DNA of 64,000 bases from contig JAHYJV010000001.1 of NCBI GenBank assembly GCA_019428855.1, forward strand, positions 14,885-78,884, read 5' to 3'. How positions within the stretch are numbered: the first letter of the stretch is position 1; the number at the start of each line of letters is the position of its first letter. This stretch comes from Patescibacteria group bacterium. Lineage in GTDB: Bacteria > Patescibacteriota > Minisyncoccia > JAHIHE01 > JAGLIN01. A model generated the notes under the pieces. That model saw only the letters and a list, made by a program, of their open reading frames with translations, did no database searches and was not told the origin of the DNA. Positions 2,974 to 60,024 of this stretch are shown here, piece after piece. Position numbers and translations under genes: made by a program.

Positions 2974-4310
2974 CATAAATAATGTTACCGAAACAGGTAG
3001 TGGATAGCTCATAAATGGTGTTACCATAAGGTTATTAATTTTTAACCTAAAAACACCATGAAAACAACAGTAGAACCTTTTGAAAAATATAGGGAAGAAT
3101 ATTGGAAAGCGAACAAAAAGAGGAAGGGGGAAATTTTAAATGTGATGGCAGAATTGACTGCGATGCATAAGAAATCAATTATCCGTAAATTCAAGAAACT
3201 GCAATTCGCTGATCAGGCATCCAAAAAATCTATGCCTGTTAAACAGGGAAGGCCTTGCGTCTATAATTTTGAAATTATTTTTGCTTTAAAACAATTATGG
3301 GAATTGAGTTTAAAATTATGCGGAGAGTTGTTGCATCCGATGATTGGGGAATATTTGGAACAATACAAGCAAAATGGCGACTGGAAATACAGCGAAGAAA
3401 TTGACTCTAAATTATTGATGATGAGCGTTTCCACGATCAAGAGAAAAGTCAGTCAATCTTTTAAAGAAGACAAGAATTCTTTTCGCAAAGGAAAATCAAC
3501 AACAAAATCATCATCTATCAAAACAATTATTCCGATCAGAGACGCTTCTTGGTTTGACGCTAAAATCGGCGAAGGTCAATTAGACACCGTCGTCCATTGC
3601 GGAGACAGTTTGTGCAGAGATATGGCTTATACGCTTAATTACACTGATTTCAAGACTTATTGGATTGGACTGCGAGCACAAATGAATAAAGGACAAATCG
3701 CGACTCAGAAAAGTCTGTTTTACATTCAAGAAAGATTGCCATTTGATTTATTGGAAATACACCCTGACACAGGCAGCGAATTTATTAACTATCATTTGAA
3801 GAATTGCTGCAATGAAATCGGAGTTAAAATGACTCGCTCGCGTCCTAATCATAAAAATGATAATATGTGCGTAGAAGAAAGAAACGGACATATTATCAGG
3901 AAGAAGGTTGGTTACATCAGAATTGATTATCAGGAAGCAGTGAATGTTTTGAATGAGTATTATGAGAATCTCTGTCTGTTTCAAAACCATTTTATAGCCG
4001 TGAGAAGAACCAAAGATAAAGTTAGAATCGGTTCCCGTTATCAAAGAACATTTGAATCAGCCAAAACTCCTTATCAAAGAGTTGTGGAATCCAATGAAAT
4101 TTCTGACGATCAAAAGAAAAAATTAGAATGAATTCATAAAGCTCTTAATATATTTGAACTGCAAGAAAAAATGGATGAATTATTAGAAAAAGTTTGGATT
4201 ATTCAAAAGAAAAAAAGAGGCAAACTATATTAATTCTTCTGCTTGCTTTCGGTAACATACTTATGAATTACACATCTTAATTTCGGTAACATTTACTTAT
4301 GAGCTATAGC
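2974..4310 (+). mobile_element. Insertion sequence with a single DDE transposase and duplicated subterminal inverted repeats
   Basis: Left end carries CATAAATAATGTTACCGAAA (2974-2993) and ATAGCTCATAAATGGTGTTACC (3005-3026). The right end carries their reverse complements TTTCGGTAACATACTTATG (4247-4265) and TTTCGGTAACATTTACTTATGAGCTAT (4281-4307). Confidence 0.6.
3058..4131 (+). CDS. DDE (rve/integrase-core) transposase
   Basis: Catalytic triad candidates DTVVHCGD ... HPDTGSEF ... CVEERNGHIIRK (D-D-E), an N-terminal HTH-like segment, and flanking inverted repeats. Confidence 0.75.
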   Translation: MKTTVEPFEKYREEYWKANKKRKGEILNVMAELTAMHKKSIIRKFKKLQFADQASKKSMPVKQGRPCVYNFEIIFALKQLWELSLKLCGELLHPMIGEYLEQYKQNGDWKYSEEIDSKLLMMSVSTIKRKVSQSFKEDKNSFRKGKSTTKSSSIKTIIPIRDASWFDAKIGEGQLDTVVHCGDSLCRDMAYTLNYTDFKTYWIGLRAQMNKGQIATQKSLFYIQERLPFDLLEIHPDTGSEFINYHLKNCCNEIGVKMTRSRPNHKNDNMCVEERNGHIIRKKVGYIRIDYQEAVNVLNEYYENLCLFQNHFIAVRRTKDKVRIGSRYQRTFESAKTPYQRVVESNEISDDQKKKLE

Positions 4311-4813: not shown

Positions 4814-4884
4814 GCGGGTATCGTATATCGGTATTATGTGACCTTCCCAAGGTTAAGAGACGGGTTCGACTCCCGTTACCCGCT
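4814..4884 (+). tRNA. tRNA-Gly (anticodon CCC)
   Basis: Cloverleaf folded by hand: acceptor GCGGGTA/TACCCGC; anticodon stem TGACC/GGTTA with loop TTCCCAA; T-arm ACGGG-TTCGACT-CCCGT; discriminator U. Confidence 0.7.
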
Positions 4885-6328: not shown

Positions 6329-6401
6329 GCCACCCTAGCTCAGTTGGTAGAGCAACGCACCCGTAATGCGTAGGTCGCCAGTTCGAATCTGGCGGGTGGC
6401 T
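6329..6401 (+). tRNA. tRNA-Thr (anticodon CGT)
   Basis: Acceptor GCCACCC/GGGTGGC; D-arm GCTC-AGTTGGTA-GAGC; anticodon stem ACGCA/TGCGT with loop CCCGTAA; T-arm GCCAG-TTCGAAT-CTGGC. Position 33 appears to be C, which is unusual. Confidence 0.6.
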
Positions 6402-6686: not shown

Positions 6687-7797
6687 ATGAAAGAAACAGT
6701 TGAAAAAATTCAAGATTTAAAAAAGAGGGCCCTCCTGGTGAGGGAATGTCTTTGACTTGAATCGAAAGAAAGCGGAGATTGTTGGACTGGAAGCGGAAGT
6801 TAATGAGACTGGATTTTGGAGTGACACCAGGAAAGCAAAAAGGGTTATGCAGAAATTAGATAGTTATCGAGAAATAGTAGGTTTTTGGGATGATATTGAA
6901 AAAAGAATCGATGATTTAGAAGAGATTTTGAACATAATTGATGAAAAAAAAGATAAGGAAGTTCTTCGGGATGCAAAGGAAAGGCTTACTTTTTTGGAAA
7001 AAACATTTATAGAACACGAATTTGAGGCTTTGATGAGTGGTAAATATGACAGTGCGAGTGCAATTATGGCAATTCACAGCGGAGCAGGTGGGGTTGATGC
7101 ACAGGATTGGTCAGAAATGGTTTTGCGAATGTATTTGCGTTATGCAGAAAATCATAAATATAAAACATCTATAGTAAGTATATCAATAGGAGAAGAAGCT
7201 GGAATTAAGAGCGTGACATTTATAGTTACTGGGCCGTTTGCTTATGGACATTTGAAAAATGAAGCTGGGGTGCATAGATTAGTGAGACTCTCACCGTTTA
7301 ATTCTGATAATTTGCGTCAAACTTCATTTGCTCTAGTGGAAGTGTTGCCAGAAATTGAATCTGATGACGAAGTGAAGATTAATGATGATGATTTGAAAAT
7401 TAATACATTCCGGGCAAGTGGAGCAGGCGGTCAGCATGTCAATAAAACAGATTCAGCCGTTCGTATTACTCATCTTCCGACAAAGACAGTAGTAGAATGT
7501 CAAAACGAAAGAAGTCAGTCACAAAACAAGGAAAGTGCCATGCGAGTTTTGAAGGCAAAATTATATAAGTTACAACAAGAAAAAGAAGAAGCAGAAAAGA
7601 AAGAGCTGCGCGGAGAATATACTTCGGCAGAATGGGGAAATCAGATTAGGTCATATGTTCTTCATCCCTATAAACTTGTCAAAGACCACCGCACTGGAGT
7701 TGAAAATAAGGACACAGAAAAAGTTCTTGAGGGAGACATTAATCGATTTATAGAAGCGAGGCTGAAGGGGGTTGTGGAGAGAGGGGATAGGAAGTAG
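6687..7797 (+). CDS. prfB: Peptide chain release factor 2, including the 22-codon leader and a programmed +1 frameshift
   Basis: The main ORF (track 6757-7797) has GGQ (SGAGGQHVN) and SPF motifs. The upstream ATG at 6687 gives the leader MKETVEKIQDLKKRALLVRECL, which ends at CTT TGA C. Confidence 0.85.
6738..6757 (+). promoter_or_regulatory. RF2 +1 frameshift site: internal SD-like GGTGAGGG, then CTT-TGA-C
   Basis: This is the canonical autoregulatory recoding motif. By my hand count the register is uncertain by 1 nt. Confidence 0.6.
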
Positions 7798-8084
7798 GAT
7801 TTGTCATTACTTAAATACAAGATTATGGATTCATGGTCTCGCGGGATCTTGGATGGCTAAATAGAATTTTTATTTTATAGAGAAAAGATCCCGTTGTCAT
7901 TCCGTACGCAGAGAAAAGAAGTTGAGGAATAGCTCTTTTTTTCAGTTATCATATAAATACTAATTTTTAAACTGGTCATTACCGCGGAGCAAGAATGACA
8001 ATTAAAGTCTAGGGTTAATAAGAAAGCTGTAAATGACAATCTGAAATATAATAAATAACTTTATTAAAAACTAATTTTAAACAT

Positions 8085-8549
8085 ATGACAAAAAAAAATA
8101 TCAAGAAGGTAGAAAAAATGGAAATTAAGAAGGATATGCCACAGGACCACTACTATACAAATTCAACACAATTACCAGTTAATTATACTGATGATTTATT
8201 TGAAGCAGTTGATTTACAAAATCCTTTGCAAACAAAATATACAGGTGGAACTGTGATGCATGCTTTTTTAGGTGAAAGATTGCCAAGTGGAAAAGAAGCA
8301 AAGCTGTTGGTAAAAAAAATATTTGAAAAATCTCAAATGCCATATCTTTCTCTTACTCCAACTTTTAGTGTTTGCCCAAATCATGGTTATCTTTCTGGTG
8401 AACATTTCACTTGTCCAAAATGCCTAATTGAACAACCTTGCGAAGTTTATTCAAGAGTAGTGGGATATTTGCGTCCTGTTCAACAATGGAATAAGGGAAA
8501 AGTTTCCGAATATGCGAGAAGAAAAGTATTTAAGGCTAAAATAAAATAA
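8085..8549 (+). CDS. Stand-alone NrdD C-terminal domain protein (glycyl-radical loop + Zn ribbon), copy 1
   Basis: YYTNSTQLPVNY...YTGGTVMHAFLGE...LTPTFSVCPNHGY...CPKC...YSRVVGYLRPVQQWNKGKVSEYARRKVF matches the C-terminal ~150 aa of anaerobic ribonucleoside-triphosphate reductase, including the RVxGY glycyl-radical motif. Confidence 0.8.
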   Translation: MTKKNIKKVEKMEIKKDMPQDHYYTNSTQLPVNYTDDLFEAVDLQNPLQTKYTGGTVMHAFLGERLPSGKEAKLLVKKIFEKSQMPYLSLTPTFSVCPNHGYLSGEHFTCPKCLIEQPCEVYSRVVGYLRPVQQWNKGKVSEYARRKVFKAKIK

Positions 8550-8673
8550 GATTGTTCAAGATTAACATTACCGCGGAGCAAGAATGACAATTAAAGTCTA
8601 GGGTTAATAAGAAAGCTGTAAATGACAATCTGAAATATAATAAATAACTTTATTAAAAACTAATTTTAAACAT

Positions 8674-9138
8674 ATGACAAAAAAAAATATCAAGAAGGTA
8701 GAAAAAATGGAAATTAAGAAGGATATGCCACAGGACCACTACTATACAAATTCAACACAATTACCAGTTAATTATACTGATGATTTATTTGAAGCAGTTG
8801 ATTTACAAAATCCTTTGCAAACAAAATATACAGGTGGAACTGTGATGCATGCTTTTTTAGGTGAAAGATTGCCAAGTGGAAAAGAAGCAAAGCTGTTGGT
8901 AAAAAAAATATTTGAAAAATCTCAAATGCCATATCTTTCTCTTACTCCAACTTTTAGTGTTTGCCCAAATCATGGTTATCTTTCTGGTGAACATTTCACT
9001 TGTCCAAAATGCCTAATTGAACAACCTTGCGAAGTTTATTCAAGAGTAGTGGGATATTTGCGTCCTGTTCAACAATGGAATAAGGGAAAAGTTTCCGAAT
9101 ATGCGAGAAGAAAAGTATTTAAGGCTAAAATAAAATAA
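8674..9138 (+). CDS. Stand-alone NrdD C-terminal domain protein, copy 2 (identical)
   Basis: The translation is identical to the ORF at 8085-8549. Confidence 0.8.
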   Translation: MTKKNIKKVEKMEIKKDMPQDHYYTNSTQLPVNYTDDLFEAVDLQNPLQTKYTGGTVMHAFLGERLPSGKEAKLLVKKIFEKSQMPYLSLTPTFSVCPNHGYLSGEHFTCPKCLIEQPCEVYSRVVGYLRPVQQWNKGKVSEYARRKVFKAKIK

Positions 9139-9308
9139 GATTGTTCAAGATTAACATTACCGATCAGGAATTTCAATATTTTGTTTTCAAATGTCTCAGA
9201 GACCCTAGAGCCTCTAGAGACATTGAGGTGCAAAAATGTGAAGCTTGTTTTGAGTTTTGCTGAATGTTTGAAACAGCGATGATTAATGTATGTAATTAAT
9301 ATAATTAA

Positions 9309-10004
9309 ATGAACCAGATAATGATTGAATTCGAAAATGTATCAAAAATATATAATGAAAATAGCTTTGCCCTGAAAGATATTAATTTTCAGATTGTTAA
9401 AGGAGAATTTGTTTCAATCGTTGGTCAAAGTGGTGCGGGAAAATCTACACTTTTGAAAATGGTTTTTGCAGAGGAAAATCCGACAGAAGGAAATATTTTA
9501 ATTAAGGGCAGAAACATAAGCAAAATCAAGAGTAACAAAATGCCGGTTTTGAGAAGGCACATTGGTGTTGTTTTTCAGGATTTCAAATTGCTATATGGGA
9601 AAACAGTTTTTGAAAATGTTGCTTTTGCTATGGAGGTTTCTGGAAAAACGGACAAAGAAATTAGAGAAGATGTTCCTCAAGTCTTGGAAATTGTAGGATT
9701 AGCAAGCAAGGTTGATAGTTATATAGATGAACTATCTGGTGGAGAAAGACAGAGAGTCTCAATTGCTAGAGCGTTGGTTCACAGACCAGACATTATTATT
9801 GCGGATGAGCCGACTGGAAATCTTGACCTTGTTAATACTTGGGATATAGTGCAACTTTTGATGAAAATTAATCAATACGGAACTACTATCGTTTTGGCCA
9901 CACATAATAGGGAGATTGTAAATTTAATAAACAAAAGAGTAATTACGATTGAAAAAGGAAGAATATCAAGAGATCAACACGATAATGGAAAATATCTAAT
10001 ATAA
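9309..10004 (+). CDS. ftsE: Cell-division ABC ATPase FtsE
   Basis: Walker A GQSGAGKST, signature LSGGERQRVSIARAL, Walker [13 protein letters not shown]. It lies adjacent to ftsX. Confidence 0.85.
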   Translation: MNQIMIEFENVSKIYNENSFALKDINFQIVKGEFVSIVGQSGAGKSTLLKMVFAEENPTEGNILIKGRNISKIKSNKMPVLRRHIGVVFQDFKLLYGKTVFENVAFAMEVSGKTDKEIREDVPQVLEIVGLASKVDSYIDELSGGERQRVSIARALVHRPDIIIADEPTGNLDLVNTWDIVQLLMKINQYGTTIVLATHNREIVNLINKRVITIEKGRISRDQHDNGKYLI

Positions 10005-10051: not shown

Positions 10052-10975
10052 ATGAAAAGATTGATTGTTACAAATTTTAAAAGAGTTTCGAAATCTGCTA
10101 TTAAGGATTTGACTCGCAACCTCTGGTTGAATATGGCAACAGTTATCATCGTAGTCATCGCTCTATTTACTATTACAACGATGCTGGCGATTGATGCGGT
10201 TGGTAATCATGCACTTCTGTCTTTGCAAGAAAAAATTGATATATCTATCCAGTTTGATGATGATGCCGAAGAATATAAAATATTAGAATTTAAAAAAGAC
10301 TTGGAGAATTTAGAGGAAGTGAAAAGTGTTTCATATATCTCCAAGGAGCAAGCTTTAATTAATTTCAGAGAAACTCACAAGGACAATGCATATGTAAATC
10401 AGTCAATTGATGAGTTGGGAGAGAATCCATTGTTTGCAGTTTTAAATTTAAAGTCAGCACAAATTACTCAATATAGTGCAATTAATGAATATATTCTTGG
10501 AAATGATAATTACCAAGATATAATTGAAAAAGTAAATTATAAAGAAAACGAAAAAGCGATTGAAAATCTTTCCAAGATATTGGCTACGATTAAAGATGGA
10601 ATTTTTGCTTTAACGGTTTTGTTTATTTTTATAAGTATCTTAATTGCATTTAATACAATTCGTCTAGCATTATATTCTCACAAAATGGAAATCGAGATTA
10701 TGCGTTTAGTTGGCGCGAGTAACTGGTATATTAGAATGCCATTCGTAATTGAGGGTGCTATATTAGGTGCAATTAGTTGTTTGATAACCCTCGCGATTAT
10801 ATCTCCTGCGGCCGTCTATGTTTCTCCAAGGATTACTCAATTTTTACCAGAATTTGATTTATATATTTATTTTATGGATAATTTTCTCAGTATCTCTGCC
10901 TTACTAGCCTTAATTGGAATCGGGATGGGAGTGTTTAGTAGTTTGATTGCAATTAGGAGATATTTAAAAGCATAG
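10052..10975 (+). CDS. ftsX: Cell-division permease-like protein FtsX
   Basis: N-terminal TM helix, a large extracytoplasmic loop, three C-terminal TM helices, and a position immediately downstream of ftsE. Confidence 0.8.
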   Translation: MKRLIVTNFKRVSKSAIKDLTRNLWLNMATVIIVVIALFTITTMLAIDAVGNHALLSLQEKIDISIQFDDDAEEYKILEFKKDLENLEEVKSVSYISKEQALINFRETHKDNAYVNQSIDELGENPLFAVLNLKSAQITQYSAINEYILGNDNYQDIIEKVNYKENEKAIENLSKILATIKDGIFALTVLFIFISILIAFNTIRLALYSHKMEIEIMRLVGASNWYIRMPFVIEGAILGAISCLITLAIISPAAVYVSPRITQFLPEFDLYIYFMDNFLSISALLALIGIGMGVFSSLIAIRRYLKA

Positions 10976-11065
10976 GAATTTTAATAGGGCTCAAAATAAA
11001 GACAGTTTTTTGAAGTTGTATCTCAATAGGGTTGTTTAAGTATATTCTTGGTTTATGTAATATTC

Positions 11066-11196
11066 TTGAATTACGAAATACAACATACTTGTCACCCTGA
11101 GCTTGTCGAAGTGTTGAAGTTGCAAGAAATACTACTAATCAAGATGAATTAACTTCGACAAGACCATCATGAGAAATTTAGCTATTTCATAATTCA
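11066..11196. mobile_element. MITE copy A (variant 1) with TIRs TTGAATTACGAAAT / ATTTCATAATTCAA
   Basis: It shares termini with five other copies and its internal sequence with copy B (43322-43454). Confidence 0.55.
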
Positions 11197-11342
11197 AAAT
11201 AATATACAATTTCTAAGGGACTGTCCTTTAATGGGTTGTTCGGTCTAATTTAAATTAACTCAGTAAAATGAGTTATTTTATTGATTCGCACAGGTTGATT
11301 AGTTTCTTTTTCTGTGATATAAATTATATATTGTTCAAATAT

Positions 11343-11413
11343 TCGGGGGTCGTCTAATGGTAGGACGGCAGGTTCTGGTCCTGCTAATCGGGGTTCGAGT
11401 CCCTGCTCCCGAA
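11343..11413 (+). tRNA. tRNA-Gln (anticodon CTG)
   Basis: Acceptor TCGGGGG/CTCCCGA with a U1-A72 pair as in bacterial tRNA-Gln; anticodon stem GCAGG/CCTGC with loop TTCTGGT; T-arm CGGGG-TTCGAGT-CCCTG. Confidence 0.7.
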
Positions 11414-11467
11414 CAAACAAAATATCCGCCTTAGCTAGCGGTTATTTTATTATTATCCCAATATATT

Positions 11468-11598
11468 TAATTCCTTTGAATTACGAAATGCTGTTTTCTT
11501 GTCTTCTCGAATAATATGAGAGATCTTAAAATACGGGAAATGAAACTAAATTTATTTTTAGACCATTCCGTCGCTACCGCTCTTTCGGGATGACAAAG
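11468..11598. mobile_element. MITE copy C (variant 2), truncated and lacking the 3' TIR
   Basis: The 5' TIR and internal sequence match copies D and F; the element ends at ..GGGATGACAAAG. Confidence 0.45.
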
Positions 11599-11656
11599 TA
11601 TGCTGAGTTCAGGTGCTTGATATGTTGGTTTTGATGTAATGTGCAATAGATTCTGA

Positions 11657-11818
11657 ATTACTTTGAATTAGGAAATGCTGTTTTCTTGTCATCTCGAACA
11701 ATATGAGAGATCTTAGAATATGGGAAATTAAAATAGATTTAATTTTAGATCCCTTTGTCGCTACCTCTTTTTCAGGATGACAAAAAAAGAAATGCTAATT
11801 TCGTAATTCAAAGTAATT
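11657..11818. mobile_element. MITE copy D (variant 2), complete with 21-bp TIRs AATTACTTTGAATTAGGAAAT / ATTTCGTAATTCAAAGTAATT
   Basis: Inverted termini read directly; the internal sequence is about 90% identical to C and F. Confidence 0.6.
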
Positions 11819-12116
11819 CATTAGTTCTTGACATTATTTTTTATCAGATATATACTTATGATACTTACTTACCAACTGGTAAGTAAGTAAACAAGAGACA
11901 ATAAAGGAGGAAAAAAGTATATCGAATTTAATTAAAAAAAAAGAGATATTTTTACGAAAAATCTCTTGTATAGTGTTTTTTAATTTAATTTTTCTTCGAA
12001 TAATACGCAGAAAAATTAAGCACAGAGGCTTTCGGAATTTTTTGTAGAAAAAAATATTTTTCTACACCTTTTAAAATTACAATTTTCAATATTAAGCAAT
12101 TATTAAAATATTACAT

Positions 12117-21998: not shown

Positions 21999-22395
21999 TG
22001 GTGGAGATGGCGGGAATTGAACCCGCGTCTAGTAAATCCATTTAAAAATCATCTACCAATATATGCCGTTCTTTGGGGTTTAAAATTTATAAGCAATGAA
22101 CGACCAAGACCTCATAAATTCGATTCTGACTAAATTTTCAGATTTTTGCGGTAAGAAATCACAAAGTCCTATCTTGATGTATAACACCGAAGTTTTGCCT
22201 ATCAAGATTTGGCAAATCGATGGCTACCGGTCTATTAGACAGTAGCAGTCGCAAATGTAGGAACTCTAAATAGAGAAGCTACTTTGCTTACAAGTGATTC
22301 TGCACTTATATTTTTCTGATAATTTTTACGAGATTAACCAGAATGCTCGATTGGCAATTTTCAAATTAAGATTCCTATCGAATCTAAACATCCCC
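21999..22395 (-). ncRNA. ssrA: tmRNA (SsrA)
   Basis: 5' GGGGATG pairs with 3' CATCTCC-ACCA and includes the G3-U70 wobble. The T-arm GCGGG-TTCAATT-CCCGC precedes the CCA end. An internal tag frame starts at GCA near nt 93 and ends in tandem stops TAA TAG. smpB lies immediately upstream. Confidence 0.85.
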
Positions 22396-25713: not shown

Positions 25714-28700
25714 ATGTTTAAAAAGGTAAATCCGAGGCAGAATTTTCCAGAGATGGAGAAGGATGTGATGAAATTTTGGGAAGATAATAAAATATTTGAA
25801 AAATCTGTAGAAAATCAGGGTAATAAAAAAACATATAGCTTTTTTGATGGACCTCCGTTTGCGACAGGGCTTCCTCACTATGGACATGTTGTCGCCAGTT
25901 TGATCAAGGATGTTGTACCACGATTTCGGACAATGAAAGGCAACAAAGTGAACCGTAAATGGGGTTGGGATTGTCATGGTTTGCCGATTGAAAATTTGAT
26001 TGAAAAAGAACACGATATCAAAAATAAGCAGGATATTGAAAAGTGGGGGGTTGATAATTTCAATAATACTTGTCATAATTCTGTTTTGCGTTATGCGGAA
26101 GATTGGAAGAAATTTATTCCACGCATGGGTAGATGGGTTGATATGGAAAATGATTATCGCACGATGGATTGGAAATATACGGAAAGTATTTGGTGGGTTT
26201 TTTCCGAGCTTTTCAAAAAAGGACTGGTTTATGAAGGACACAAAGCGATGCATATTTGCCCAAGGTGTGAGACGACGCTTTCTAATTTTGAAGTGACGCA
26301 GGGATATAAGTATATCACAGATTTATCGGCGACAGTGAAGTTTAAGTTGAAAAAAGAGAGCGGAAAATTGTTAAGGGAAAAGATCCTGAATCAAGTTCAG
26401 GATGACAGTGCAAATCAGGATGAAAAAAATCTCAGGGCGAATTTCTCAAATCATAATGATGAAGATGTTTTTTTGTTAGCTTGGACAACAACGCCGTGGA
26501 CTTTACCGGGAAATGTGGCTTTGGCGGTTAGGGAAGATATTGAGTATATAGAAATTGCTGAAAGCATTAAAGGTAGTATAAGTTCAGATAATAAAACATA
26601 TGAGCTTCCTAGTAATGAAAAATATATCATTGCAAAAAAAATCTTTTCAAAAGAAAGTCAAAAACTTGTGACAGATAATGATTTAAGTCAGGTTTATATT
26701 TACGAAGGAAAGAATTATAAAATAATTAAAGAATTTAAAGGTAAAGATTTAGTCGGTTTGGAATATGAACCTTTGTTTGACTATTATTTTCAAAAAGATG
26801 ATTTGGAAAATAAAGATAACGGTTGGAAAATTTATGCTGGTGATTTTGTTTCCACAGATGAAGGAACAGGAGTTGTTCATATTGCACCAGCATTTGGAGA
26901 TGACGATATGAAGATGGGGCAGAAACATAATTTGCCTTTTGTTCAGCATGTTAAAATGAGCGGGAGATTTACAGAGGAAGTGGTTGATTTCAAGGATAAA
27001 GATGGAGGAAATGCGGAAGTAAAACCTAAGGGAGTGGCTGGCGAAAAAGATGCAAACATGAAGACTGATATTGAAATTATCAAATATTTAGCACATCATA
27101 ATTTTCTGTTTTCAAAGAAAAAATATGAACATAGTTATCCTCATTGTTGGAGATGTGATACGCCGCTTTTGAATTATGCGACGAGTTCTTGGTTTGTGAA
27201 GGTGACGGAAATTAAAGATCAAATGGTGACAAATAACAAACAAGTAAACTGGACTCCGGAATATATTAAGGAGGGGAGATTTGGAAAGTGGCTGGAAGAT
27301 GCGCGCGATTGGGCAATTTCACGAAACCGATTTTGGGGAGCTCCGCTACCAATTTGGAAGTGCTCAGATTGTGAGAATGTTGAAGTTGTGAATTCGATTG
27401 ATGAACTTCGAGAAAAAACAGAGGAGAAAATCACCAAGTTTATTTTTGTCAGACATGGGGAAAGTGAAAGTAATTTAAATAATACGAAAGTAAGTCAAAT
27501 AAATGATTATCCATTGACGAACAAAGGCATTGAACAGTCGAAAAATATTGCAAAAATATTAAGTGACGAAAAGATTGATATCATCATTTCTTCTCCTATA
27601 CTCAGAACAAAACAGACCGCTGATATTATCAATGAGGTTTTAAATATTGAGAGAATTGAAGATGATAGAATCAAGGAATATGAATATGGGTCTTGGAACG
27701 GTCATAGCAGTGAGGAATTGTTTTGTGAAAAGAATGAAATATATCAAAATTATAAAAAGATGGAGGGTCCCGAAGAAAAATGGCATTTTAAATTTGGGGG
27801 AGACGGCGAGTCAAGGCTTGAAGTTGAAAAGAGAGTGCGGATTTTTATGGAAGAAATTAACAAAAAATATGCGGGTCAGAATATATTAGTTGTCAGCCAT
27901 GGCGGAGTCAATGCAATGCTTGTCAAGATTTTTGAGAATTTATCAATCAAGGAAACATACAAACATGAGTTTATCGGTCATGCAGAAAAAAGTGTTTTTT
28001 ATGCAAACAGTGAAGGAAAAAAATTTGACCTTCATAAACCAAATATTGATGGAGTAAAAATTAAATGTTCTGCTTGTGGTAGTGAGGCAAAAATCGTCGG
28101 TGATGTATTTGATTGTTGGTTTGAATCTGGTTCAATGCCTTATGCTCAGTGGCACTATCCATTTGAAAACAAGGATGAATTTGAAAAAAATTTTCCAGCA
28201 GATTTTATTGCGGAAGGGTTGGATCAAACGCGAGGTTGGTTCTATACTTTGATGGTGCTTTCGACGGCACTTTTTGACAAAGCTCCATTTAATAATGTGA
28301 TTGTGAATGGTATGGTCCTAGCCGAAGATGGGCAGAAAATGAGCAAGAGATTACAGAACTATCCCGAGCCTAATTTGGTAATCGAAAAATATGGAGCTGA
28401 TGCTTTGCGATATTATCTTTTGTCTTCACCGGTGATGAAAGGGGAGAGTTTGCGATTTTCAGAAAAGGGAGTTGATGAAGTTCTGAAGAAGTTTATTTTG
28501 ACGCTTTGGAATACCTATTCATTTTTGGTGATGAATGTGGACGAAGAGATCTTTCTTCGCCAAGCTCAGAATGACAAAGTATATTTAAAATCTGAAAATC
28601 TACTTGATCAGTGGATTATTTCAGAATTCAATATTTTAATTGGAGAGGTGAATAAGGAAATGGAAAACTATGATTTGGTGCGTGCCACCAGACCATTGCG

Positions 28701-29550
28701 TGAGTTTATAGAGAAGCTTTCCAATTGGTATGTTCGTCGAAGTAGAAAAAGATTTGCGTCAGAAAATGTTAATGATCGGAATTTTGCCCAGCAAACTTTA
28801 TATTATGTTCTGAGCGAATATGCGAAATTGTTAGCGCCATTTATGCCATTTTTATCTGAAGAAATATATCGAAATTTAACTGACAAAGAGTCTGTTCATC
28901 TGTCGGATTATCCCATTTCTAATCAAGATTTAATCAATGAAAAAGTAAGCGGTGAAATGAATTTTATTAGACAGGTGATTTCGCTGGGCTTGGCGATTCG
29001 TGCCAAGAATGCAATTAAGGTCAGAATGCCTCTGGCTACTTTACAAATTCAAAGTGAAAAATCGAAATTGGAAAATAAAGAATTAATGAATTTGATAAAG
29101 GAAGAATTAAATGTGAAGGCCGTTGAGTTTGTTGAATCTTTGCAAAAAGGATCTACTCAAGAGAATGGAGCAGACGAAGGTGGCTGGGCGATTGCAGAGG
29201 AAGTAGGATTGAAAGTGGCACTTGATTTGAATTTGACGGAAGAATTAAAAAATGAAGGATTGGCCAGAGAGTTAGTTCGACATATTCAAGTGATGAGAAA
29301 AGAGGCAAAATTTAATCGAGAGGATTTGATTTTTATTGAATACAGCTTTATAAAAGAAAGCAAGGGAGTGGAGAAAGCTTTTGAAAGCTGGAAAGATTGT
29401 ATCAAAAAAGAGTGTTTGGCAAAAACTATGAAATTCAAAGAAGTAATTGAAAGTGAAAATTTTGATTCAGTGAAAGAATTGAAGGTGGGGGAGTCTGTGG
29501 TTAAAGTTGGGGTTAAAAAATATAATAAAAAAGAAAGGAAGATTTTATAA
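25714..29550 (+). CDS. ileS: Isoleucyl-tRNA synthetase with an embedded histidine-phosphatase domain
   Basis: HIGH (PHYGHVV), WAISRNRFWGAPLPIW and KMSKS (KMSKR) motifs. At 1278 aa it is about 200 aa longer than typical IleRS because of an insert between the WKCSDC and CSACGS zinc-knuckle halves. Confidence 0.9.
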   Translation: MFKKVNPRQNFPEMEKDVMKFWEDNKIFEKSVENQGNKKTYSFFDGPPFATGLPHYGHVVASLIKDVVPRFRTMKGNKVNRKWGWDCHGLPIENLIEKEHDIKNKQDIEKWGVDNFNNTCHNSVLRYAEDWKKFIPRMGRWVDMENDYRTMDWKYTESIWWVFSELFKKGLVYEGHKAMHICPRCETTLSNFEVTQGYKYITDLSATVKFKLKKESGKLLREKILNQVQDDSANQDEKNLRANFSNHNDEDVFLLAWTTTPWTLPGNVALAVREDIEYIEIAESIKGSISSDNKTYELPSNEKYIIAKKIFSKESQKLVTDNDLSQVYIYEGKNYKIIKEFKGKDLVGLEYEPLFDYYFQKDDLENKDNGWKIYAGDFVSTDEGTGVVHIAPAFGDDDMKMGQKHNLPFVQHVKMSGRFTEEVVDFKDKDGGNAEVKPKGVAGEKDANMKTDIEIIKYLAHHNFLFSKKKYEHSYPHCWRCDTPLLNYATSSWFVKVTEIKDQMVTNNKQVNWTPEYIKEGRFGKWLEDARDWAISRNRFWGAPLPIWKCSDCENVEVVNSIDELREKTEEKITKFIFVRHGESESNLNNTKVSQINDYPLTNKGIEQSKNIAKILSDEKIDIIISSPILRTKQTADIINEVLNIERIEDDRIKEYEYGSWNGHSSEELFCEKNEIYQNYKKMEGPEEKWHFKFGGDGESRLEVEKRVRIFMEEINKKYAGQNILVVSHGGVNAMLVKIFENLSIKETYKHEFIGHAEKSVFYANSEGKKFDLHKPNIDGVKIKCSACGSEAKIVGDVFDCWFESGSMPYAQWHYPFENKDEFEKNFPADFIAEGLDQTRGWFYTLMVLSTALFDKAPFNNVIVNGMVLAEDGQKMSKRLQNYPEPNLVIEKYGADALRYYLLSSPVMKGESLRFSEKGVDEVLKKFILTLWNTYSFLVMNVDEEIFLRQAQNDKVYLKSENLLDQWIISEFNILIGEVNKEMENYDLVRATRPLREFIEKLSNWYVRRSRKRFASENVNDRNFAQQTLYYVLSEYAKLLAPFMPFLSEEIYRNLTDKESVHLSDYPISNQDLINEKVSGEMNFIRQVISLGLAIRAKNAIKVRMPLATLQIQSEKSKLENKELMNLIKEELNVKAVEFVESLQKGSTQENGADEGGWAIAEEVGLKVALDLNLTEELKNEGLARELVRHIQVMRKEAKFNREDLIFIEYSFIKESKGVEKAFESWKDCIKKECLAKTMKFKEVIESENFDSVKELKVGESVVKVGVKKYNKKERKIL
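27433..28020 (+). other. In-frame histidine-phosphatase (phosphoglycerate-mutase superfamily) domain inserted inside ileS
   Basis: FIFVRHGESESN (RHG catalytic His) ... LVVSHGGVNAM (second His motif). It is flanked by the IleRS segments ..PIWKCSDCENVEVVNSIDELREK and DLHKPNIDGVKIKCSACGS..DVFDCWFESGSMP. Confidence 0.7.
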
Positions 29551-43256: not shown

Positions 43257-43504
43257 GGCTCTACACTAATAATTGTGGTGAAAAGCTAAAGAAGTGGTAG
43301 AATTATATTGATAAATTATTTTTAAATTACAAAATTCAACATACTTGTCACCCTGAGCCTGTCGAAGGGTTGAAGTTACAAGAAATATTATCAATCAATA
43401 TGAATTTACTTCGACAAGCTCACCATGACAAATTTAGCTATTTCGTAATTCAAAAGAATAAACAATACACCACTCCTTAGAAAAATGATATCAAAAAACT
43501 GTTT
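43257..43504 (+). repeat. R1-R2 module, copy 2, split by the insertion of MITE copy B
   Basis: R1 (43257-43318) and R2 (43471-43504) are contiguous in copy 1 but separated here by about 150 bp carrying the MITE. Confidence 0.55.
43322..43454. mobile_element. MITE copy B (variant 1)
   Basis: AAATTACAAAATTCAACATACTTGTCACCCTGAGCCTGTCGAAGG...CTTCGACAAGCTCACCATGACAAATTTAGCTATTTCGTAATTCAAAAG is about 85% identical to copy A. Confidence 0.55.
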
Positions 43505-59803: not shown

Positions 59804-59844
59804 AAAAGAAATTGAATTTTTTATGTTAGTATTTAATGAAGTTT

Positions 59845-59995
59845 TTTGAATTACGAAATGAGCATTTCTTTTTTTGTCATCCCGAAAGAGCGGTAGCGAC
59901 GAAGGGATCTAAAAGTAAAGCTAGTTTCATTTCCCGTATTTTAAGATCTCTCATATTGTTCGAGATGACAAGAAAACAGCATTTCGTAATTCAAA
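59845..59995. mobile_element. MITE copy F (variant 2, reverse orientation relative to C/D)
   Basis: TTTTTGAATTACGAAATG....ATTTCGTAATTCAAAGG. It ends 30 bp upstream of a GT4 gene. Confidence 0.6.
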
Positions 59996-60024
59996 GGAAG
60001 TTATAAAATTAACTATATTAATGT

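Follow-up and report, generated by a model that had tools for sequence, protein, structure and literature searches.

A stretch of 64,000 nucleotides from a Patescibacteria group bacterium (contig JAHYJV010000001.1 of the assembly GCA_019428855.1, referred to below as the window) contains two identical head-to-tail units of 589 bp, each with a complete gene, termed here nrdD-C, for a 154-aa protein homologous to the C-terminal end of NrdD, the class III ribonucleotide reductase (RNR). We regard this repeat as a real in-vivo duplication, carried by a substantial fraction of the population or more, with a probability of roughly 0.6. The structure of its junction suggests formation by a RecA-independent route, and comparison with close relatives suggests that in this genome nrdD-C encodes the obligatory small, radical-bearing subunit of a class III RNR made from two genes.

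A letter-by-letter self-comparison of the window shows that positions 7977-8573 are the same as 8566-9162, with 597 of 597 positions matching at an offset of 589. The region has the layout m-U-m-U-m, in which two head-to-tail units with a length of 589 bp are delimited by an 8-bp sequence m, CATTACCG. The parts of the repeat are as follows:

7977-7984, + strand: left copy of CATTACCG, the outer left boundary of the duplication (one of three such sites at a period of 589)
7977-8565, + strand: duplication unit 1 (589 bp), with nrdD-C preceded by 108 nt of 5' region and followed by 16 nt of 3' sequence (exact identity with 8566-9154)
8085-8549, + strand: nrdD-C copy 1, encoding the C-terminal piece of class III RNR as a separate protein of 154 aa (matches to Pfam NRDD, PRK08270 and 4COI)
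8566-8573, + strand: junction copy of CATTACCG, a novel joint in which ...AGATTAA is followed by CATTACCG and then by CGGAGC... (sequence self-match)
8566-9154, + strand: duplication unit 2 (589 bp; exact identity with unit 1)
8674-9138, + strand: nrdD-C copy 2, identical to copy 1 (154 aa each)
9155-9162, + strand: right copy of CATTACCG, the outer right boundary of the duplication (one of the three sites at a period of 589)

These three are the only CATTACCG sites in the window, and the sequence across the joint between unit 1 and unit 2 is AGATTAACATTACCGCGGAGC. The sequence-only reading that preceded this analysis had described a perfect 2 x 589-bp tandem duplication, with an identity spanning the 5' sequence and the whole 154-aa open reading frame (ORF). 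Both statements are borne out and its coordinates and sequence strings are right, the unit starts it gave (7979 and 8568) falling inside the 8-bp phase ambiguity of the repeat; the third, partial copy of the motif that it placed at 9157 is real, and amounts to the 8-bp CATTACCG only. Exact direct repeats of at least 20 nt in the 64-kb window comprise the duplication and a single 22-mer, and there are no Ns. Tandem Repeats Finder (TRF) missed the 589-bp repeat because its longest period was 500.

The same 8 bp of microhomology stand at both outer boundaries and at the joint, i.e. within the range of ~5-25 bp expected of a short-junction tandem duplication. In a simulation on the de-duplicated window with units of 300-2000 bp, junction homology of at least 8 bp was found in 0.038% of 200,000 arbitrary tandem breakpoints (P = 0.0004), and only three pairs of 8-mers, CATTACCG among them, bracket the whole gene inside its two spacers. 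Classical unequal crossing-over requires tens of bp of homology or more, and no long flanking repeat able to support such a RecA-dependent process was found around the unit in the window. Such a junction is what is expected of a RecA-independent event, be it slippage, template switching or microhomology-mediated joining. Events with 5-25 bp of microhomology are placed in this RecA-independent category, and instability is an inherent property of tandem duplications (bioRxiv 10.64898/2026.05.22.727201). The earlier proposal of a recent unequal crossing-over on the short repeat was correct as regards the recency of the event and its location on a short direct repeat, but the 8-bp microhomology points to the RecA-independent route instead. 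A single-copy ancestor would already have had CATTACCG on either side of the gene, 589 bp apart, and replication slippage, template switching or another form of RecA-independent illegitimate recombination between these 8-bp repeats would have produced m-U-m-U-m.

The arrangement resembles microhomology-mediated tandem duplications and amplifications in its identical head-to-tail units, its 8-bp junction, the absence of long flanking repeats and the inclusion of a whole gene with its 5' region. It differs in that the 589-bp unit is very small compared to the usual amplicons of kb to Mb, and in that it comes from a single consensus assembly of an uncultured bacterium of the Candidate Phyla Radiation (CPR). 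The layout m-U-m-U-m is formally equal also to an alternation of target-site duplications and elements (TSD-element-TSD-element-TSD), as would be left by a mobile cassette that inserted beside its own copy with CATTACCG as an 8-bp target-site duplication. However, the unit is the resident, syntenic gene at this position across the clade, and neither a transposase nor terminal inverted repeats nor a further copy of the unit were found in the window, hence we rejected the cassette as hardly credible.

Analysis of the 154-aa product reveals matches to the C-terminal end of NrdD only. It matches positions 427-562 of 562 in Pfam NRDD (E 1.7e-47) and positions 548-683 of 684 in NCBIfam PRK08270 (195 bits versus the full-length cut-off of 548), aligns with residues 523-644 of the Thermotoga maritima NrdD (4COI), and shares 77% identity with the C-terminal end of a full-length NrdD of 718 aa from a CPR bacterium (locus L017). 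Because the profile matches are partial, the score lies below the full-length cut-offs and no N-terminal part is present in the window, we class the ORF as a piece of NrdD and not as an NrdD (Pfam PF13597 / TIGR02487); the complete catalytic chain, with the ATP-cone, the ten-stranded barrel and the finger-loop cysteine, is missing from it. According to these alignments, nrdD-C covers the last ~125-130 residues of class III RNR, i.e. the final barrel strand, the zinc ribbon and the glycyl-radical loop. The protein opens with its own ~20-aa lysine-rich leader, after which follows D-x-YYTNSTQLP, with the YTNS strand present. A zinc site with the pattern C97-x2-H100...C110-x2-C113 (plus C119), in which metal binding is predicted from sequence, shares its CxxH/CxxC pattern with the full-length CPR NrdD of L017. 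The glycyl-radical motif RVVGYLRP is located at aa 124-131 (G127), RVxGY being invariant in 35 stand-alone homologues, and altogether 52 alignment columns are invariant among the stand-alone homologues, including C97, H100, C110 and R-V-x-G-Y. Full-length NrdD proteins (e.g. from T. maritima, 4COI/4U3E, and Prevotella copri, 8P23) share this C-terminal region with RVxGY and the region of the zinc site, whereas the 154-aa protein lacks the ATP-cone and the catalytic barrel and has the leader of its own. An AlphaFold2 model of the isolated protein is of low confidence (predicted local distance difference test score, pLDDT, 67), and a Foldseek search of the PDB with it gave no match with E <= 0.001, as expected for a piece cut from a barrel.

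The ratio of nonsynonymous to synonymous substitution rates (dN/dS) of nrdD-C is 0.049 in comparison with locus L002 and 0.063 in comparison with L011, which indicates strong purifying selection. A pseudogene remnant was considered and rejected in view of the dN/dS of about 0.05, the conserved synteny and the intact motifs. The label "NrdD-C gene" given to the ORF by the first reading is confirmed inasmuch as this is an NrdD C-terminal gene, but it undersells what appears to be a conserved, selected and syntenic stand-alone gene of a two-gene NrdD.

Database searches identified a clade of proteins of 142-172 aa with 63-94% identity to the 154-aa product; they come from Candidatus Pacebacteria/Paceibacterota and other related bacteria of the CPR, and contigs of 50-100 kb carry several of the genes. 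The homology to NrdD starts at one and the same residue, corresponding to position 588 of 718 in the NrdD of L017, in all stand-alone loci retrieved (L001-L016, L018, L038, L098-L102). The locus is bounded by conserved neighbours:

6688-7797, + strand: prfB (RF2), conserved upstream neighbour (profile matches; CTTTGAC +1 frameshift site at ~6750-6756)
9309-10004, + strand: ftsE, conserved downstream neighbour (profile match and synteny)
10052-10975, + strand: ftsX, conserved downstream neighbour (profile match and synteny)

Wherever the flanking sequence sufficed (18 loci checked), prfB and/or ftsE adjoin nrdD-C, even where the identity of PrfB has dropped to ~60%. Neither the N-terminal part of NrdD nor nrdG nor ftsZ is found within the 64-kb window. 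A search with residues 1-587 of the full-length CPR NrdD returned ~70 clusters of proteins of 577-581 aa, consisting of an ATP-cone plus NRDD, which are abundant in the same clade and stop just where the 154-aa type of protein starts. In the relatives the gene for this N-terminal piece (nrdD-N) stands in the order ftsA/ftsZ - nrdD-N - nrdG, where nrdG encodes a 240-aa radical S-adenosylmethionine (SAM) activase. Since the gap between nrdD-N and nrdG is only 34-160 nt, there is no vestigial C-terminal coding sequence at the nrdD-N locus. The N-terminal piece terminates with ...KYPDIITA plus four residues and the homology of the C-terminal piece begins with D-x-YYTNS after the leader; in the undivided protein an 11-residue linker is found at this place. 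In the relatives two ORFs jointly cover the full-length chain without overlap or loss. Both pieces were found in the metagenome-assembled genome (MAG) JAGLIM01 (C-terminal piece at L011, N-terminal piece plus nrdG at L097) and in the MAG GCA_030638075.1 (C-terminal piece at L004, 94% identical to that of the window, N-terminal piece plus nrdG at L182), and they co-occur also in four ENA metagenome samples. No full-length NrdD from JAGLIM01 or GCA_030638075.1 was found among the 80 best genome hits, with the reservation that these MAGs are incomplete.

From these relatives we infer that in the genome of the window, too, class III RNR is made from two genes, with nrdD-C coding for the small subunit that bears the radical. 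This subunit would be obligatory because its NrdD-N partner never has a radical domain of its own. The rest of NrdD (580 residues with the ATP-cone, the catalytic barrel and the MCCRL finger-loop cysteines) would be encoded elsewhere, next to nrdG.

A different interpretation is that the 154-aa protein is a spare part, which repairs oxygen-cleaved full-length NrdD in the manner of GrcA (YfiD) and is not an obligatory half. Like GrcA, it is small and autonomous, and its homology is with that end of the enzyme which bears the glycyl radical; both are stand-alone glycyl-radical-domain proteins that presumably use the activase of the respective enzyme and dock on a large subunit without a working radical domain. 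The idea is not far-fetched for class III RNR, as elsewhere small glycyl-radical ORFs of 86-90 aa directly follow full-length nrdD genes. However, GrcA is homologous to pyruvate formate-lyase (PFL) and coexists with full-length PFL, whereas the NrdD-N of the relatives is devoid of a radical domain, and coexistence with a full-length enzyme bearing its own radical domain was not observed in the relatives. The only NrdD found in the two checkable MAGs ends where the 154-aa protein begins and lacks the radical domain, no full-length enzyme from them appearing among the 80 hits mentioned above. The protein holds, moreover, the last barrel strand and the zinc ribbon, i.e. more than the radical loop, and its matches are to the NRDD family only, the PFL-type glycyl-radical domain (Pfam Gly_radical) not being among them. 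According to a 2026 review (PMC13450708), no spare-part proteins are known outside the formate lyases. On this evidence we consider the repair function improbable, and return to the two-gene RNR.

If so, a split class III RNR with distant genes is probably a new variety of split RNR. The genes nrdJa and nrdJb of a split class II RNR are adjacent, whereas the NrdD halves lie at distant loci, ftsZ-nrdDN-nrdG and prfB-nrdDC-ftsE. The NrdJa/NrdJb system of Pseudomonas aeruginosa (cited in PMC9669993) and the split NrdD are alike in having a large N-terminal and a small C-terminal RNR chain, the small one with a zinc-finger-type C-terminal module, and differ in that NrdJ is of class II and in that the class III split has the radical site on the small piece while the NrdJ split does not. 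An RNR large subunit made of two separately translated pieces is found also in NrdA of phage Aeh1. The latter is reportedly a case of "genes-in-pieces", split by a homing endonuclease gene and functioning as two separately translated pieces; these flank a mobile gene at one locus, whereas the NrdD pieces are at different loci with no mobile gene between them. Our search of the literature on split or truncated NrdD, and on NrdD in Parcubacteria/Patescibacteria, returned nothing relevant, which given its incomplete coverage of the literature is weak evidence.

Stand-alone nrdD-C is single-copy in all ~22 related loci of the Paceibacterota relatives, and the two copies in the window differ nowhere. 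Judging from these two facts, the duplication is lineage-specific and very recent, and the zero divergence between the copies fits the known instability of tandem duplications. The same facts would be compatible with an assembly or in-vitro artefact, in which the genome is single-copy and the second unit stems from over-traversal of a loop in the assembly graph (chimeric reads from multiple displacement amplification, MDA, or from PCR), from faulty gap closing or from an unmerged contig overlap; an artefact, too, would leave perfectly identical copies, and in-vitro template switching likewise uses microhomology. On the other hand, the ends left by an unmerged overlap or by faulty gap closing are arbitrary, while here the ends share 8 bp (P = 0.0004, as given above), two strain variants placed in tandem would differ from each other, only a few of the reads at a given site are normally chimeric, and the 64 kb contain no Ns and, apart from the 22-mer, no other exact repeat or oddity. 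The routes to a false second copy that remain are a graph loop from a minority of cells or from chimeric reads, and we consider an artefact a realistic but minority possibility.

A number of further observations count against a genuine duplication of a functional subunit gene. No second assembly of the strain came up in exact-protein look-ups with NrdD-C and FtsE, and an exact 24-mer search with the unit start or the junction found nothing in the JGI metagenomes. The duplication occurs in 0 of the ~22 related loci, with no sign of recurrence or selection. Assemblers can traverse a graph loop backed by minority or chimeric reads. A scan for sigma-70 promoters and intrinsic terminators returned nothing above shuffle expectation, and no convincing sigma-70 promoter was found inside the 589-bp unit. 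Finally, nrdD-N and nrdG are absent from the 64-kb window. In our preferred interpretation, a real duplication, the copy number is at least two; the duplication may be confined to a fraction of the population, and the actual number, with short reads, could be above two.

Two further elements in and around the unit are relevant to its expression:

8059-8084, + strand: conserved 5'-proximal element TTTATTAAAAACTAATTTTAAACAT, immediately 5' of the copy-1 ATG (the sole upstream block conserved among the stand-alone loci)
9190-9226, + strand: imperfect inverted repeat AATGTCTCAGAG...CTCTAGAGACATT, after copy 2 only and outside the unit (-8.5 kcal/mol, z = -1.74)

The element TTTATTAAAAACTAATTTTAAACAT is conserved upstream of nrdD-C in the stand-alone loci L002, L011, L013, L014 and L099. 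It lies within the unit and is hence duplicated, the second copy being at 8648-8673. The ATG of copy 1 has no visible Shine-Dalgarno sequence ahead of it, and TTTATTAAAAACTAATTTTAAACAT may be a promoter or a translation-initiation signal. The inverted repeat at 9190-9226, the sole notable one, located 3' of copy 2, lacks a T-run and was not called as an intrinsic terminator; it may act as a weak terminator. Matches to the NrdR-box (ACACWATATATWGTGT, up to 4 mismatches) were absent upstream of nrdD-N and nrdD-C. An Rfam search of 7750-9350 found no RNA family, a single sub-threshold hit being rejected as a chance match to a human long non-coding RNA (lncRNA) model.

The GTCATT...AATGAC hairpin that the sequence-only reading had placed at the head of each unit finds no support. 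Its left arm, GTCATT, is whole before copy 1 only, because G7975 and T7976 are outside the repeat, and the stem at copy 2 has 4 bp. The DNA folds at the unit start with -3.3 kcal/mol (z = -0.43 versus shuffles) at copy 1 and -0.6 kcal/mol (z = +1.18) at copy 2, i.e. no better than shuffled sequence, and the hairpin was rejected as a structural feature. The left breakpoint sits in the motif GGTCATTACCGCGGAGCAAGAATGAC, which resembles a decayed palindromic element of the repetitive extragenic palindromic (REP) kind (GTCATTCCCGCGGAGGCGGGAAT-type) that L011 has, inversely oriented, in the corresponding spacer before nrdD-C. The related GTCAYYCYGA family is over-represented in the window (9 copies versus 0.36 expected). 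As a lead, this REP-like motif at the left breakpoint may have favoured pausing or misalignment.

Since each unit includes 108 nt of upstream sequence with TTTATTAAAAACTAATTTTAAACAT, both copies should be translated alike. As the unit carries the whole nrdD-C and its 5'-proximal element, both copies would be expressed, either from a signal of their own or from a prfB-nrdDC-ftsEX transcript. The net effect would be two gene copies, and with them a doubled dose, for a small subunit that bears the radical and is sacrificed to oxygen. Oxygen destroys glycyl radicals by cleavage of the chain at the glycine, and in E. coli GrcA rescues cleaved PFL (PMC13450708). Because of this cleavage a higher supply of the separate radical domain could be useful; the sequence itself shows no selection and is compatible both with selection for extra dosage and with a transient neutral variant.

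An older, stable two-copy state, with copies homogenised by gene conversion and a higher dose of the radical subunit being advantageous, would agree with unit boundaries that enclose exactly one complete gene and the conserved 5' element, and with a product that, given what is generally known of glycyl radical enzymes, should be the part of the enzyme that oxygen destroys. It is nevertheless distinctly improbable: there are zero differences over 597 nt, non-coding sequence included, two copies are found in no relative, even at 94% protein identity, and a 589-bp direct repeat is readily lost through RecA recombination (bioRxiv 10.64898/2026.05.22.727201). We retain a recent duplication as the preferred explanation.

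In several genomes, outside the window, the next ORF after a full-length nrdD encodes a protein of 86-114 aa with a CxxC...CxxC zinc ribbon followed by TEVYSRVVGYIRPVQQWNKGK..E..DRKEF (L057:4263-4607, L059:4480-4725, L061:2507-2767, L066:10692-10958, L080:8094-8354, L173:2039-2311). Its glycyl-radical loop is near-identical to the C-terminus of the adjacent NrdD, and it matches positions 510-562 of 562 in Pfam NRDD (E about 1e-13). By its domain content this mini-ORF resembles a spare part of the GrcA type, in this case one for class III RNR. It is conceivable, although unlikely, that the split NrdD is a replaceable radical cartridge, in which 154 aa and not 580 aa have to be remade and activated anew after oxygen cleavage, that the duplication is an adaptive increase in dosage under oxygen exposure, and that the mini-ORFs of 86-90 aa after full-length nrdD in other lineages are a second, independent solution. 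Other CPR lineages possess full-length nrdD ORFs of 1000-1370 aa, as compared to the usual ~700 (L029, L043, L054, L058, L067, L129, L148, L153, L156, L160), a length that suggests large in-frame insertions, possibly inteins.

The remainder of the window contains several other features. The programmed +1 frameshift of prfB is canonical, with the ATG at 6688, a Shine-Dalgarno-like sequence GGTGAGGG and CTT TGA C at 6750-6756; because of this frameshift site, the listed prfB ORF at 6757-7797 is only the post-frameshift part. A 357-aa ORF at 3058-4131 (+ strand) shows weak similarity to IS3/IS481 transposases. The closest relatives, L001-L006, have there an asparaginase gene, between gyrB and a gene for a DivIC-like protein, a difference that points to local gene replacement or insertion. 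The isoleucyl-tRNA synthetase (IleRS) ORF at 25714-29550 (+ strand, 1278 aa) contains a complete histidine-phosphatase domain (His_Phos_1, aa 577-771), placed between the catalytic and the anticodon-binding parts. A dispersed family of short palindromic REP-like elements (TTGTCAYYCYGA...) has copies at 11091, 11594, 11781, 20395, 25650, 26406, 28575, 43347 and 59876, of which those at 26406 and 28575 are inside the IleRS ORF, reminiscent of in-frame insertions of palindromic elements. We also found intergenic repeats of 130-190 nt similar to miniature inverted-repeat transposable elements (MITEs), with 86-90% identity, direct as well as inverted, and with the core TTTGAATTACGAAATGCTGTTTTCTTGTC; the pairs are 11052-11210 / 43308-43466, and 11460-11597, 11651-11834 / 59823-60010. 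The ordinary RNA genes comprise one tmRNA (21999-22395, - strand) and three tRNA genes (4814-4884, 6329-6401 and 11343-11413, + strand).

The duplication itself is a textbook kind of event, and its practical lesson is that the copy number at this place needs checking at the level of reads; the two-piece enzyme is the more unusual of the two. Our findings suggest that the ~150-aa "partial NrdD" and the ~580-aa "truncated NrdD" annotations in Paceibacterota are not pseudogenes or fragments at the ends of contigs. If the pieces assemble, they would form a natural two-component glycyl radical enzyme, whose separable parts would allow studies of how NrdG activates it, how the radical domain docks and how oxygen damage is repaired, and the "spare part" idea would extend beyond pyruvate formate-lyase.

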